A stretch of DNA of 5,551 bases, taken from IMG/VR virus record IMGVR_UViG_2778261534_000003. One strand, 5' to 3'. A program made the position numbers and the translations under genes. The notes under the pieces were generated by a model, which worked only from the letters and a program-made list of their open reading frames with translations, was not told the origin of the DNA and ran no database searches. Origin of the DNA: a virus (Duplodnaviria > Heunggongvirae > Uroviricota > Caudoviricetes). This document shows, one piece after another, positions 1 through 5,551 of this stretch; the stretch's first letter is position 1, and each line of letters starts with the position of its first letter.

Positions 1-26
1 TGACAAGATGTGTATCTACCTTAACT

Positions 27-50
27 TAATGATTTTGATAAAAATCATTA
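27..50. repeat. 10-bp perfect inverted repeat (taatgatttt / aaaatcatta) with 4-bp spacer gata, 23 bp upstream of the recombinase fragment
   Basis: Read directly: arms at 27-36 and 41-50 are exact reverse complements. Reverse complement of 31-41 is TTATCAAAATC, which resembles (from memory, unverified) the TTATCAAAAAC half-site of Hin/Gin-family crossover sites. Function unknown. Confidence 0.4.
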
Positions 51-72
51 GGGGATTCATCAGTGCTTAGCA

Positions 73-366
73 TTGGGTGGCATTGACCTGACCAGTCCAA
101 CAGGAAAAATGATGATGCAAGTAATTTCAGCAGTCGCTGAATTTGAACGAGACCTTTTACTTGAACGCACTCATTCCGGGATAGTAAGAGCCCGCGGCGC
201 AGGGAAACGTTTTGGTCGACCACCTGTGTTAAATGAAGAACAGAAACAGGTGGTATTCGAACGAATTAAGTCAGGTGTAAGTATAAGTGCCATTGCCCGG
301 GAATTCAAAACCTCGCGGCAAACCATTTTAAGAGCCAAAGCAAAACTTCAGACACCTGACATATAA
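73..366 (+). pseudogene. 5'-truncated serine recombinase (resolvase/invertase family) fragment: C-terminal ~97 codons only (E-helix plus helix-turn-helix DNA-binding domain)
   Basis: Translation ([35 protein letters not shown]...[21 protein letters not shown]) matches the C-terminal half of Tn3/gamma-delta resolvase and Hin/Gin/Pin-type recombinases. The N-terminal catalytic domain with the active-site serine is absent. In-frame stops at 1-3, 22-24 and 49-51, and the other two forward frames are also closed upstream. The ORF would have to start at TTG (73). Confidence 0.6.
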
Positions 367-387
367 AAAATAATCTCGGTGTGAGAT
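361..387 (-). terminator. Weak candidate intrinsic terminator downstream of the stf-tfa remnant: 5-bp stem atctc/gagat (373-377 / 383-387) followed on the minus strand by a T-rich run (complement of 361-372)
   Basis: Hairpin and U-tract read from sequence. The stem is short and AT-rich, so this is tentative; it could equally serve the convergent recombinase fragment poorly. Confidence 0.25.
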
Positions 388-463
388 GCTTTACGTCTTC
401 CAAGCCCCCTTCCTTGCCGTAAATGGAAAGATACATCTAATTATAGAATTTATATGTTTTACC

Positions 464-601
464 CTACGGCAGTGCTGGCCATTCAATATCCGGTACTACT
501 GATGTATTAACACGGTTCAGCAACACCCGATACTTTTTCCAGACTTCCAGCAACGAAGTTTCTTCCTCCGTTGCGATTTCCAGCTCAACAACAGTCTGAA
601 C
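464..601 (-). pseudogene. tfa: 3' remnant of a lambda-type tail fibre assembly gene (Tfa C-terminal ~45 codons), in the same frame as stf and immediately after its stop
   Basis: Minus-strand translation after the stf TGA (638-640) reads [57 protein letters not shown], stop at 464-466. [31 protein letters not shown] is the conserved C-terminus of lambda Tfa as I recall it. No start codon or N-terminal Tfa region is present. Confidence 0.65.
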
Positions 602-637
602 GTACCAGGAACAGCCTCCTTCAGGGCTTGAAGGATA

Positions 638-1075
638 TCAATGTTCGCTTCCTGTTAACTGCCCGACAAGTGCAACCAGTTCGCTTACCTGATTTTCCAG
701 AGTGCTGATCCGGGTGCCTGCTGTTGCCAGATTTTTACGTAGCGTTATGTTTTCCTCTTCCAGCGCGGTAACGCGACCATCTGTTTCACGGGCGACCTGA
801 ACAAGTAACCCCGTCACGGCGGCGTAGTCAACATTCAGATAACGTGTTTCTTCACGTAATTCATTGCCGTCAACCGTTGGTCCCTGCAACTCTTCACCGT
901 AATGAGTAAACGATCCTACAGCTTCTGGTATCGCCTCCATTACTTCCTGTGCAATAACGCCAGCATAAGGCATCCCGTTTTCCCTGAGCGTGTAGGTGTA
1001 TCCGTTCATTTTACGGATTGCTTTCGTCGCGTCGCTGATAACGAGAATATCGTCTTTAAGGTCGCGGTCTGATGA
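638..1075 (-). other. Stf C-terminal intramolecular chaperone / autoproteolytic domain (peptidase S74-like, 'chaperone of endosialidase'), residues ~1058-1202
   Basis: SSDRDLKDDI has the Ser-x4-Lys dyad spacing of S74 chaperones. Hallmark blocks GVIAQEVMEAIPEAV and YLNVDYAAVTGLLVQVARE are followed by a coiled-coil-like tail, and the domain ends at the protein C-terminus as in endosialidase and T5 L-shaped fibre proteins. Confidence 0.7.
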
Positions 1076-4000
1076 CTGATTCAGCGTTGTGCAATTAATA
1101 GCGCCATTTACATCAAACAACTGGCCTGCTGACGTTTTTTGCGCATAAAACAGATACGCAGCAGACGTTCCAACCTCAAAAACGTTTTGTCGATCACTTG
1201 ATCCCCATACTTTTGCGGCAAATGATAGTTCTGTATTACCTAAGTTCTGTAAAACAAAACGATTGCCAGTCCCTGTTTGTTTTGTAAGAGTTAAATCAAC
1301 AGTTGAGTTAACCTCATCCTTGTTGATAGTGAGCGCCTGCGCTTTAGCCCCGTTAACAGCACCTGTTTTGAGTTGAACCGCGCCGTCATTACCATTTAAC
1401 AGTATCTCAGCTCCGCTAAAGAAATTTTTTAGCGACAGCATCTTACTTACGCCGACTGATGAACCCAACGCCCACGCGAGAGAATTACCGGTGCTATCAA
1501 ACCCACGTACAAAGCAATCCATTTTGCTATAGTCTGACGTGCTTCCAAGGACATCAATCCGCCCTCCGCCAGATTTTACCGGGTTAGATGTGGTTAATGA
1601 CCTGACAGCAAGATCGGTAGATGAATTGAGATCGTCTACTGTTAATAGTCGTTTCCATCCCTTATCAACCCCAGCCTCAAAGCTTCTTGCCCAAAATTTG
1701 GAGTTGCGACCGGCGAATTGTGTGACGTAATTACCGCTAAATTGAGCATGGAATCCGCCAACAACCATTGTTCCGTCAGGACCGCCTGCGCTCCCTGCTA
1801 TTGGCTTAAACTTATTTACATTCTCTGTATGTTGAGTGCTCCAGTTTTGCCCTGTGTGAACAACCAATCCCTGATAAGAACTGAAGGTACCATCAAGGTT
1901 AAAATTAAAGAACTTACTGTTCCCTGAATTATTTATGTCCCTGACAACAATTTCACCAGAAGCGTTAGCGGCCCTTAGTTCAGTTTGATCGACAACCGGA
2001 CCTCCTTCGGATTGTAATCTTTGAGAAACAAATGTTCTGTTTGAAGCGTCCGTACCGTACGCGGTGAAAGATTGTGTTGCTTTAATCTGACCATTGTTTA
2101 CAAATATAGGAATAGTGACGGTAAAATTTTTGTCAAAACTCAGGCCATTTGTTAATGCAATCCTTTCTGACACCCCTTGTCTGAACGGAAGGTTGCTGTA
2201 GAAGCCATGTTCACCGCCAGTGAAGTCAAGAACATTTTTAACAAAGTTCTTGTCGTTATCCTCCGTTGACGTTGATACACCAAACTTATATCTAACCCCG
2301 TTGTCACCAATTACGTAGTCTTCTGTTGGAACCTTAACTTTTGCCTTGTAGCCAGTTTGCACAACGACAGGAAAAGCGCTTTTATGGATGTAGAAAGCTA
2401 CATGCTGCGCATAATCTCTTTGCGACGCTTTAATGCAAAGTATCCCGAGTTCATTTTTTTCATAGCAAACAAATGACCCGTAAGCCACATCGCGAACGTC
2501 ACTCCAGCCACCACATCGAATGAACCCAAAAAATGAGTTACTATTAAGCGGATTTGATGCCGGACCTCCTGCTGTTTTTATTTCAACAGGACATAACATG
2601 GCACCGCTCCCATTCATTGCGGATGTGTCTATTATGACAGGGTAGTATTTGCCATCCACTGCACCACCAGGGGCATTAAGGGTCATTGCTTTTGTTAATC
2701 CACCCTCAGGGATTTGCAAATTAGTTTTGGCGTCATCAAGGCTATTTGCGCCAGTGCCACCATGAGAAACATCAAGTGGTATCCATTTTTTTTGTGTGTC
2801 GCTGTAACACCCCCATGTTGATCCGGTTAACCCCAGGCGCATGGATTTATCATGGTTATATAACCATGTTTCGCTATTCCATTGGTCAAGACGGTCCACT
2901 TCATTTTTGCGAGCGTGGCGTGTCCATTGCGGGCCTGTTGTCGGACTCCAGCGATAGGTATAAAGCGAGCGAGTAGTCCATCCCTGAAATACACCTGTAT
3001 ACGCTGGAGTTCCATCTACCTGACTAATAAACCCCGTAAGACTGCTTTCACCGGATGCAATAGACGGGAAACCTGTTGCATCAGCCATGATGCGCATAAA
3101 GCCAATATAACCTGATGGATTTCCTGAGATGTCAGAGCAACCACGCGGTGATGATCCCAAACCGATGTTAGTACCAACAATACCCTGGGCCTGGTTGCGA
3201 TAATTAAGTGCGTCCGCCGCAGATTTCGCCGCGTTTGTTTCACTGGATTTAGCATTAGTTTCGCTGGCTTTAGCGTTGGTTTCGCTGCTCTTTGCTGCTG
3301 CCTCGCTATTTTTCGCGTTGGTTTCTGATTTTTTGGCTGCTGTCGCGGAGTTTGCCGATGCAGTTTGTGAGTCTGCTGCCGCCTGTGCGCTGTTATCCGC
3401 ATTCGTCTCAGACGTTTTTGCGGCCTTCGCGGAATTTCCTGCCGCCGTTGCCGAGGAAGCGGCACTGCTGGCGCTCGAGGCAGCGCTCGTTTCTGATGAT
3501 TTTGCCGCCTCTTTTGAAGCCGACGCATCCCGGGCTGAGGTGGCAGCTTCTGACGCTTTCGTGGTCGCGGTGGATGCAGAAGTGGCTGCTGATTGTTGTG
3601 ATGCTGCAGCATTCGTTTCTGACGTTTTCGCCGCACCGGCACTGGTGGCTGCCGCGCTTTTTGAGGACTCTGCTGCGGCAGCACTTTTTAATGCTTCAGT
3701 GGCCTTTGTTGATGCCGTTCCTGCGCTGGAAGACGCTGACTGAGCCGACGACGCGGCCTGTCCGGCTGACGTGCTGGCTGCGCGTGCTGAGCCTGCAGCA
3801 TCAGTCGCATGGGTTGCCGCCTCACGGGCTGATGTGCTGGCATCGCCGGCTGACTTCTTCGCGGCTGCCGTGTCCTGTGCCACTGCGGACGCGTTACGCG
3901 CCACCTCTTCCACCATCAGTTCAAAACGGCGCAGTGCCTCCGGACGGGCATCATCCTCCGTCATGGCACCGAGAAAATCATTCAGCGTACCCGGTTGAGA

Positions 4001-4240
4001 ATCTTCATACACGGTGATGGTCCCGGCATGTGACGGCGGGAATCCCTCCACCAACAGAATAACGCTGTACTGGCCGTGCTCAACGTCCATGCTGTAACGC
4101 CCTGCTTCATCCGGATTTTCAGATGCCACCGTGTTCACCACCACCGTGGTGCTGTTACGTTTTGCTTTCAGCTGGATTGTGCAGTTCTGTACCGGTTTAC
4201 CTGCACCGTCTTTCAGTACACCTGAAATCTTTACTGCCAT
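638..4240 (-). CDS. stf: Side tail fibre protein (lambda Stf family N-terminus, Ala/Ser/Thr-rich shaft, divergent distal domain, C-terminal intramolecular chaperone)
   Basis: 1200-codon ORF. The N-terminus MAVKISGVLKDGAGKPVQNCTIQLKAKRNSTTVVVN... closely matches lambda Stf. ATG at 4240-4238 gives the lambda-like MAVKISG start; the ORF track's start at 4246 is a GTG two codons upstream. Possible Shine-Dalgarno GGGGTG just upstream. Contains a PLDVSHGGTGANSLDDAKTNL motif typical of phage fibre proteins. C-terminal 145 residues are an S74-type chaperone domain. Confidence 0.9.
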   Translation of the reverse strand: MAVKISGVLKDGAGKPVQNCTIQLKAKRNSTTVVVNTVASENPDEAGRYSMDVEHGQYSVILLVEGFPPSHAGTITVYEDSQPGTLNDFLGAMTEDDARPEALRRFELMVEEVARNASAVAQDTAAAKKSAGDASTSAREAATHATDAAGSARAASTSAGQAASSAQSASSSAGTASTKATEALKSAAAAESSKSAAATSAGAAKTSETNAAASQQSAATSASTATTKASEAATSARDASASKEAAKSSETSAASSASSAASSATAAGNSAKAAKTSETNADNSAQAAADSQTASANSATAAKKSETNAKNSEAAAKSSETNAKASETNAKSSETNAAKSAADALNYRNQAQGIVGTNIGLGSSPRGCSDISGNPSGYIGFMRIMADATGFPSIASGESSLTGFISQVDGTPAYTGVFQGWTTRSLYTYRWSPTTGPQWTRHARKNEVDRLDQWNSETWLYNHDKSMRLGLTGSTWGCYSDTQKKWIPLDVSHGGTGANSLDDAKTNLQIPEGGLTKAMTLNAPGGAVDGKYYPVIIDTSAMNGSGAMLCPVEIKTAGGPASNPLNSNSFFGFIRCGGWSDVRDVAYGSFVCYEKNELGILCIKASQRDYAQHVAFYIHKSAFPVVVQTGYKAKVKVPTEDYVIGDNGVRYKFGVSTSTEDNDKNFVKNVLDFTGGEHGFYSNLPFRQGVSERIALTNGLSFDKNFTVTIPIFVNNGQIKATQSFTAYGTDASNRTFVSQRLQSEGGPVVDQTELRAANASGEIVVRDINNSGNSKFFNFNLDGTFSSYQGLVVHTGQNWSTQHTENVNKFKPIAGSAGGPDGTMVVGGFHAQFSGNYVTQFAGRNSKFWARSFEAGVDKGWKRLLTVDDLNSSTDLAVRSLTTSNPVKSGGGRIDVLGSTSDYSKMDCFVRGFDSTGNSLAWALGSSVGVSKMLSLKNFFSGAEILLNGNDGAVQLKTGAVNGAKAQALTINKDEVNSTVDLTLTKQTGTGNRFVLQNLGNTELSFAAKVWGSSDRQNVFEVGTSAAYLFYAQKTSAGQLFDVNGAINCTTLNQSSDRDLKDDILVISDATKAIRKMNGYTYTLRENGMPYAGVIAQEVMEAIPEAVGSFTHYGEELQGPTVDGNELREETRYLNVDYAAVTGLLVQVARETDGRVTALEEENITLRKNLATAGTRISTLENQVSELVALVGQLTGSEH
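3212..3904 (-). repeat. Low-complexity Ala/Ser/Thr-rich coding repeat region of the Stf shaft (residues ~115-345), including degenerate tandem ~21-nt units encoding K(S/T)SETNA heptads (clearest at 3224-3340)
   Basis: Protein shows AAKTSETNA, AAKKSETNAKNSEAAAKSSETNAKASETNAKSSETNAAKSA. DNA shows reiterated tttagcgttggtttcgctg-like units at 3241-3330. The region is GC-rich and open in several frames. Confidence 0.6.
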
Positions 4241-4249
4241 ATTCACCCC

Positions 4250-4278
4250 ACAAAAAAGCCCGCCTGAACCAGCGGGCT
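4250..4278 (-). terminator. Intrinsic (rho-independent) terminator downstream of lom: 7-bp GC-rich stem (4257-4263 / 4272-4278), 8-nt loop, then a run of six T on the minus strand
   Basis: agcccgc / gcgggct are exact reverse complements. On the minus strand the hairpin is followed by TTTTTTGTG (complement of 4249-4257). It lies about 27 nt after the lom stop and about 10 nt before the stf ATG. Confidence 0.65.
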
Positions 4279-4304
4279 GTCATAACACTGTGTTACCTGG
4301 CTAA

Positions 4305-4904
4305 TCAGAACTTATAACCAACACCCACGATGAACCCGTCAGTGCGCCAGTCGCCACTGCCGGAGCCTTCATAAGCGACATCAATGGCCACCGATTCGGT
4401 CGGGTTAAACTGCACGCCAGCTCCCCACGCCAGAGACGTGTTGCTGTGGTGACCGTCATCACTTCCGGTCAGCACATCATGCGTTTTCCCCTTGTTGTCA
4501 GTTACGCGGAGATAATCCCCGGAGAAAGTCGACACACGGCTGTAAGCCACACCCGCCATCGCATACGCGCTGAACCATTCATTCACGCGCACAGACGGTC
4601 CCGCCATCACGCTGAACCAGCGGTTACGCACGGAATCCTCATGCCAGCGGGTATCGCTGTAATGCGTTTTTTGCTCATCTTCAGCGTTGGCATAACTGAA
4701 TGACGTAATCAGCCCCAGCGTGTCCGTAAACTCATAACGGTATTTCACGTTAATCCCGTTCAGATTATCGCTGCCGGGAGCGTTCGTACGGGCATGAAGA
4801 TACCCTGCGCTCAGTGTGGCCTGCTGCTCAGACGCCCATGCAGGCGCACCGGATACGGCCAGACAGATGGCTGCGGACAAAATGGCTGCATAAACTTTAC
4901 GCAT
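4305..4904 (-). CDS. lom: Lom outer membrane protein (Ail/Lom/OmpX family beta-barrel; lambda lysogenic-conversion 'moron' gene)
   Basis: 199-aa product MRKVYAAILSAAICLAVSGAPAWASE...GINVKYRYEFTDTLG...WRTDGFIVGVGYKF is near-identical in pattern to lambda Lom as I recall it. Has a signal peptide with an AWA-S cleavage motif and a C-terminal aromatic residue typical of outer-membrane barrels. Shine-Dalgarno GAGAGG at 4910-4915, 5 nt upstream of ATG (4902-4904). Confidence 0.92.
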   Translation of the reverse strand: MRKVYAAILSAAICLAVSGAPAWASEQQATLSAGYLHARTNAPGSDNLNGINVKYRYEFTDTLGLITSFSYANAEDEQKTHYSDTRWHEDSVRNRWFSVMAGPSVRVNEWFSAYAMAGVAYSRVSTFSGDYLRVTDNKGKTHDVLTGSDDGHHSNTSLAWGAGVQFNPTESVAIDVAYEGSGSGDWRTDGFIVGVGYKF

Positions 4905-4925
4905 AATTACCTCTCGCTTTTCTGC

Positions 4926-4952
4926 AATAAAAAAGGCGCCATTTCTGGCGCC
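4926..4952 (-). terminator. Intrinsic terminator between J and lom: palindromic stem GGCGCC (4935-4940 / 4947-4952), 6-nt loop, then TTTTTTATT on the minus strand
   Basis: Read directly: ggcgcc atttct ggcgcc, with the A-run at 4929-4934 on the plus strand giving a U-tract on the minus transcript. Begins about 20 nt after the J stop. Confidence 0.65.
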
Positions 4953-4971
4953 CGTATTGGGGTTATAAAAT

Positions 4972-5551
4972 TCAGCTGATACTGATGCCTGCGGTGGCTT
5001 TCTTCATCACCACAACCAGCAAATCGCTGATACTTGCTGTGGGATACCAGTCATTTACCAGCCATGCTGACACCGAAAACTCCAGCGTCATGTGGCCGCG
5101 ACCAGCTGGCATATCAATAACACCACTGTAAATCAGCGTATTATCCAGCGCGGTATGGTTATAAATTTCAGCACCGTTTTTCCGTACTATCAGGCGGCAT
5201 GAGGAGTAGATATCAGTATGATCTTGCTCATGTTTAGCGCCACTGAATGCCACCGCCGGGATAACAATTTGCCGGTCAAACGGCTGATCGTCATAAACCC
5301 TGACGGTAATGGTCCCTGATGGCCACCGCTCCGGTGCACGGGAGTCCCGGGGGAAAGCCTTACCCACTGTTTTGACAATATCACCTTCAATCTGGTTGGC
5401 TGACAGTTTCCCCTTAATCTGACAGTTCTCATTAATCGTGACATTGTTGAGCGTCCCGGCGTTCGCATTCACACTGCCACTGATATCTGCATTTTTAGCG
5501 GTCAGCTTTCCGTCTGATGTCAGGGAAAATACCGGAGGACTGCCACCGCTG
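4972..5551 (-). CDS. J: Host specificity / central tail fibre protein J, C-terminal (receptor-binding) portion; 5' end lies beyond the window
   Basis: The frame stays open from the window edge to the stop at 4972-4974. My translation of 5473-5550 continues [27 protein letters not shown] into [16 protein letters not shown]..., matching the lambda J C-terminal region as I recall it. The listed 166-aa ORF merely starts at an internal GTG. The extreme C-terminus differs from lambda J. Confidence 0.85.

Follow-up and report, generated by a model that had tools for sequence, protein, structure and literature searches.

The window analysed here, a 5,551-nt stretch of DNA, is the tail-fibre end of an E. 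coli lambdoid prophage that codes mainly on its minus strand. Its stf gene is best explained, with high confidence, as encoding a mosaic lambdoid side tail fibre that carries an S74-type self-chaperone in place of Tfa. The gene order J, lom, stf is that of a lambdoid tail module, and stf is followed by the remains of tfa, by part of a DNA invertase gene, and by the end of an insertion sequence (Table 1).

Table 1. Features of the window, in order of position (residue numbers count from the GTG start at 4246)
Feature	Position	Strand	Basis or remark
IS10/ISVsa5-type (IS4 family) terminal end, inserted in pinQ	1-63		Cut at 63/64
pinQ, DNA invertase gene, 3' part, 5' side truncated	64-366	+	ORF list; TUM1887 annotation
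tfa stub, last 45 codons and stop, no start codon	464-601	-	tblastn; Caudo_TAP; RefSeq pseudogene
Cassette unlike classic stf-tfa	601-3398		Bounded by Ala/Ser repeats and tfa stub
stf, side tail fibre gene	638-4246	-	ORF list; identical TUM1887 locus; mEp460 homologue
Intramolecular chaperone domain, aa 1059-1202 (144 aa), predicted released	641-1072	-	15.8 kDa
Long C-terminal helix, aa 1141-1199, presumed trimeric coiled coil	650-826	-	AF2 helix 104-162, pLDDT 84-94
Peptidase_S74 match, aa 1059-1110	917-1072	-	Pfam PF13884, 'Chaperone of endosialidase'
SSDRDLK motif, predicted scissile bond Ser1058-Ser1059	1055-1075	-	Sequence, conservation, T5 pb1 spacing
Predicted general base Lys1064	1055-1057	-	
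Predicted nucleophile Ser1059	1070-1072	-	
Distal fibre, presumed receptor-binding module, aa 361-1058	1073-3166	-	Common to lateral fibres of virulent siphoviruses
Ala/Ser/Thr-rich repetitive shaft, aa 137-360	3167-3838	-	Low complexity, 68% A+S+T
N-terminal tail-attachment domain, lambda Stf type, aa 3-136	3839-4240	-	Pfam phage_tail_N
Strong intrinsic terminator-like hairpin after lom	4257-4278	-	Annotated as terminator at same position in mEp460
lom	4305-4904	-	Between J and stf
Strong intrinsic terminator-like hairpin after J	4934-4953	-	Annotated as terminator at same position in mEp460
J, tail-tip gene, 3' end	4972-5551	-	

The N-terminal anchor and the C-terminal chaperone domain

The stf open reading frame encodes 1202 residues when read from a GTG at 4246 and 1200 when read from an ATG at 4240. 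The ATG is the likelier start, as it is the one used by lambda Stf and by RefSeq, and with it the dyad discussed below would be numbered Ser1057/Lys1062 rather than Ser1059/Lys1064; the longer numbering is kept here. The lambda-type attachment module that the first-pass annotation had placed at the N-terminus is confirmed by the phage_tail_N profile (E 1.6e-71) and by a HMMER match (E 5e-51) in which residues 3-96 are near-identical to a solved 94-residue 'Tail fiber protein' chain, PDB 9e7m. NCBIfam returned no family match. The shaft that follows the anchor is repetitive at the DNA level, with spacings of 21, 63, 84, and 126 nt, all multiples of 21 nt.

At the other end of the protein, window positions 638-1075 on the minus strand encode the last 145 residues of Stf, starting with SSDRDLK. 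The proposal that these residues bear the signature of an endosialidase-type chaperone holds far beyond chance. The Pfam Peptidase_S74 profile matches Stf over positions 1-57 of its 58 with an E value of 2.6e-12 and 47.3 bits, against a curated gathering cut-off of 22 bits, and it matches the 145-residue fragment alone with an E value of 4.7e-13. PHROG tail-fibre families also span the C-terminus of Stf (up to E 2.5e-68). The S74-type domain thus forms the extreme C-terminus (residues 1059-1202 of 1202) of a protein with a tail-fibre anchor.

The individual motifs named at first pass are equally real. SSDRDLK is present and aligns with SSDRRIK of Salmonella phage S16 gp37 (PDB 6f45), and GVIAQEV...PEAV aligns with the equivalent motif both in S16 gp37 and in the intramolecular chaperone auto-processing (ICA) domain of MyRF. 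In an alignment of 20 sequences whose identity to the query ranges from 50 to 96%, Lys1064 is present in 100% and Ser1059 in at least 90% of homologues; the search behind it returned mainly fragments of fewer than 300 residues, which are adequate for judging conservation and not for a census of architectures. The spacing of Ser1059 and Lys1064 is that of Ser1264 and Lys1269 in T5 pb1, where the Thr1263-Ser1264 bond is cut, the S1264A mutation blocks cleavage, and the Ser/Lys dyad has been proven experimentally (PMC4690869). In T5 and K1F, the catalytic site is completed by upstream Arg and Asp residues (Arg1250 and Asp1239 of the triple beta-helix in T5), and Stf has candidates for such partners, among them Asp1019/Arg1020 in SSDRQNVFEV.

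An AlphaFold2 monomer model of residues 1038-1202 (pLDDT 74) is made up of short helices, a long beta-hairpin, and a C-terminal helix of 59 residues, the region of which also gave weak matches to coiled-coil profiles; a model of the core only (aa 1055-1150) reached a pLDDT of 54. When the model was compared by Foldseek with 350,542 PDB chains, the MyRF ICA domain came first (probability 0.96-0.99), followed by the endosialidase 'Intramolecular Chaperone' 3gw6. MyRF (PDB 7DC3), which shares GVIAQEVxEhLPEAV with Stf, is a eukaryotic membrane-bound transcription factor, and this best structural match matters here only because it is a homologue of the domain with a solved structure. The K1F endosialidase chaperone (PDB 3GW6) is the founding member of MEROPS/Pfam S74 and belongs to the same Pfam family as Stf, but it serves an enzymatic tailspike rather than a fibre and is only 11-13% identical to Stf in the Foldseek alignments. 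In the monomer model, the order of the elements appears to be the one described for the T5 and K1F chaperones, and the description of the T5 pb1 chaperone includes the same C-terminal coiled-coil element (PMC4690869).

Family membership and these precedents suggest that the domain is cut off after it has acted. It could instead be retained, so that it remains in the mature tip or becomes the adaptor of a separate adhesin. For the latter there is a precedent in phage S16, where the adhesin gp38, a separate protein, has been solved in complex with the tip of gp37 (PDB 6f45). Such retention is extremely unlikely for Stf, as the Ser/Lys dyad is conserved and stf is followed by no adhesin gene. In addition, the fibres of related BASEL phages show no cryo-EM density for the S74 or coiled-coil parts, which are absent from the mature virions (bioRxiv 10.1101/2024.10.28.620165).

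Replacement of the distal fibre and the scar of tfa

A lambdoid locus of the classic kind is provided by phage Turner, in which stf (1119 aa) is followed by tfa (191 aa) and an invertase gene. The locus in the window shares with it, and with classic lambda stf/tfa, the position of the gene after J and lom, the N-terminal domain, and the Ala/Ser-rich shaft. The pin invertase neighbour is also shared with Turner (locus positions 1216-1806), and in both loci it lies tail-to-tail with stf/tfa. What differs is everything between: the classic distal domains of Stf and the intact Tfa are both replaced. By blastn, only window positions 61-600 (96.7%) and 3399-5551 (87.9%) align with the Turner locus, and the intervening stretch, 601-3398, is therefore a replaced cassette. 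These boundaries bear out the suggestion, made from the window's letters, that a lambda-type N-terminus had been fused to another distal module. Turner Stf, used as a control, lacks an S74 domain; its domains are Gp34_trimer, Collar, and Phage_fiber, and the gene downstream of it encodes an intact Caudo_TAP Tfa of 191 residues. In profile searches, the Collar and Phage_fiber domains were absent from the Stf of the window, as was an intact Caudo_TAP tfa downstream.

The first-pass annotation was also right that no intact tfa follows stf, since only a 45-codon 3' stub is left. By tblastn, the stub is 80% identical to residues 147-191 of Turner Tfa. It matches positions 87-130 of the 131 in the Caudo_TAP profile and no others, and RefSeq records it in the identical locus as a pseudogene with a missing N-terminus. 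Judged from the alignment, the cassette exchange removed both the Tfa-dependent distal fibre and tfa codons 1-146, or three quarters of the gene. The 5' junction of the cassette, at about 3398, falls within the Ala/Ser/Thr-rich shaft, which suggests that the shaft repeats act as a substrate for recombination.

The scar seems to travel with the cassette. S74-type stf genes with the tfa-stub pseudogene occur in five different chromosomal contexts, and every S74-type lambdoid stf examined (these five contexts and phage mEp460) is accompanied by the stub. It is quite unlikely that the stub is something other than debris, namely a fixed 3' homology arm for swaps of S74 cassettes into stf-tfa loci or, less likely still, an extension that stop-codon read-through adds to a fraction of the chains. 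The stub is in frame with stf (window 464-640) and is parted from it only by the stf TGA and then a T, an arrangement that is the same in mEp460. This placement is probably a coincidence, as it has a one-in-three chance of arising and the copies are of one ancestry.

Beyond the stub, pinQ is cut by the IS10-type element. The nine bases at 64-72, TGCTTAGCA, fit NGCTNAGCN, the Tn10/IS10 target consensus, and TGCTTAGCA occurs once in the intact pinQ of E. coli TUM1887. The IS10/pinQ junction is absent from complete E. coli genomes and, in an exact search, from species-representative genomes; matches in the complete E. coli genomes stop at window position 61-64. An invertible fibre segment flanked by Pin sites was also considered, but an inverted-repeat scan of the window gave only short, imperfect pairs at the level of chance. 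With no convincing inverted crossover sites in the window, the invertase is here without an obvious invertible segment.

Related fibres and the folding of Stf

The distal part of Stf has relatives outside the lambdoid phages. The lateral tail fibre of FritzHoffmann (Bas20; Nonagvirus, Queuovirinae) shares 78% identity with residues 320-1175 over 864 aa, and the fibre of the T5-like phage slur09 shares 70% identity with residues 441-1183 over 746 aa. The FritzHoffmann fibre has both the SSDR(R/D)LK motif and the chaperone in common with Stf. It differs in its N-terminal anchor, which is only 35% identical, and the phage itself is virulent and of another family. In slur09, the fibre gene sits after that of a "collar tail protein for L-shaped tail fibre attachment". 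Neither FritzHoffmann nor slur09 has a tfa gene behind the homologous fibre gene. Since the authors of the BASEL collection have proposed O-antigen glycans as targets of such lateral fibres (PMC8594841), the receptor of Stf is probably also a surface glycan, such as O-antigen. Immediately before the chaperone, the stretch WGSSDRQNVFEVGTSAAYLFYAQKTSAGQLFDVNG (window 1084-1230, aa ~1005-1055) gives a match to a motif in the shaft of gp34, the proximal long tail fibre of T4 (PDB 4uxe/5nxh; family profile, E about 2e-4), and it appears to be a fibre repeat common to very different phages.

Taken alone, the chaperone domain gives tblastn matches in 441 phage records, which include rV5-like, T5-like, Queuovirinae, Klebsiella, and Vibrio phages, and an S74 domain with a coiled-coil tail is common in fibres of Markadamsvirinae, Vequintavirinae, and Queuovirinae (bioRxiv 10.1101/2024.10.28.620165). 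T5 pb1 is a known counterpart: this siphovirus lateral fibre ends in a chaperone of ~133-144 aa that has a Ser-x4-Lys dyad and, besides a beta-hairpin 'tentacle', a C-terminal coiled coil. However, T5-like chaperone domains are only ~28% identical to that of Stf, and pb1 is anchored by a collar protein rather than by a lambda phage_tail_N domain.

The same gene as in the window is carried by the isolated phage mEp460. Its side tail fibre gene (JQ182728, AFM76057) shows 96.5% nucleotide identity over window 478-4989, the C-terminal 165 residues of the two proteins are 100% identical, and the same tfa stub lies downstream. The surroundings differ, with stf adjoining dinI and int in mEp460 and an IS10-cut pinQ here. 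By tblastn, the 44.5-kb mEp460 genome contains no Tfa-like sequence besides the stub, which supports a built-in chaperone that replaces Tfa. Lambda PaPa plates without side fibres, and as lambda is viable without them, the viability of mEp460 is no proof that its fibre assembles.

The mEp460 genome also bears on whether the fibre, despite its S74 domain, needs a trans-acting chaperone of the Tfa type, such as one from another lambdoid prophage. An E. coli genome usually contains several lambdoid prophages with tfa, and the window finds matches at a median of 3 places per genome. We nevertheless regard dependence on a donor as very unlikely: mEp460 has no tfa beyond the stub, the Collar/Phage_fiber distal region of the Tfa-accompanied Turner Stf is absent here, no tfa adjoins the homologous fibre genes of T5-like and Queuovirinae phages, and T5 pb1 folds and cleaves itself when expressed alone (PMC4690869). 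From family membership, we infer that Stf is independent of any Tfa supplied in trans.

The self-chaperoned mosaic fibre would then be assembled as follows. The N-terminal domain would dock the Stf trimer on a lambda-type tail, with the Ala/Ser-rich shaft next, and the distal ~700 residues would form a fibre and receptor-binding module that also circulates among T5-like and Queuovirinae lateral fibres. Following the precedents of K1F endosialidase and T5 pb1, three chaperone domains would trimerise through their C-terminal helices, and they would act as the template on which the triple-stranded fibre ahead of them folds. When the correct trimer has formed, Lys1064 would activate Ser1059 and the Ser1058-Ser1059 bond would be cut, freeing a fragment of 15.8 kDa and leaving a mature chain of 110 kDa (residues 1-1058). 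Both the autocleavage and its exact site are, like the templating, predicted from the family and its precedents. With help in folding built in, a separate Tfa would be dispensable, and tfa was deleted by the same recombination that delivered the cassette, leaving the stub of 45 codons.

The prophage, its spread, and what the locus means

Window positions 64-5551 are 100% identical to the locus of a Qin-like prophage beside ydfK/ynfT in E. coli TUM1887 and NCTC9088. With the hairpins behind both J and lom, expression of stf would need read-through, for example by late-gene antitermination. The TUM1887 prophage (locus 8909-10827) is a deletion remnant despite its intact stf: its J, tape-measure, and tail protein genes have each been truncated and lie directly against a terminase gene.

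Such decay raises the question of whether stf is used where it lies. In a decayed Qin-like prophage, the gene could be no more than an inert passenger that is intact only by recency and serves at most as a reservoir with which incoming phages can recombine. Along with the truncated genes of the identical TUM1887 locus, the IS10-type element that cuts pinQ and the position next to ydfK/ynfT, a cryptic-prophage site, are in favour of this reading. Conversely, the 3.6-kb open reading frame is uninterrupted, and near-identical copies are present in prophages with a full-length J and in the isolated phage mEp460, which implies that the module is functional somewhere. We consider an inert stf possible but doubtful. 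The question concerns use in situ only and is compatible with the chaperone mechanism.

The novelty implied when the domain was first noticed did not survive comparison with the databases. RefSeq already names WP_097431425, which lies within the 100%-identical match, as a 'prophage tail fiber N-terminal domain and S74 family endopeptidase-containing protein', and of 5426 complete E. coli genomes, 810 carry the 438-bp module at a nucleotide identity of at least 80%, the median being two copies in a genome. A lambdoid Stf that ends in an S74 domain is thus an already known and ordinary design in E. coli prophages. Our search of the literature found general treatments only and no paper devoted to a lambdoid Stf with an S74 domain; within a single phage group, the intramolecular chaperone and Tfa have been described as alternatives (PMC11990801). 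Two details are mildly curious, and only these: the in-frame tfa scar that accompanies the cassette, and the insertion of IS10 into pinQ.

The value of the analysis is mainly that of correct annotation, with little beyond it. For the lambdoid phages, the locus is a textbook case of two interchangeable solutions to fibre folding that have been swapped by a single cassette exchange, with the scar of tfa still visible. For the engineering of host range, the distal fibre and its chaperone are evidently movable as a self-sufficient unit among lambda-type, T5-type, and Queuovirinae anchors, a mobility that is already appreciated in the phage literature.
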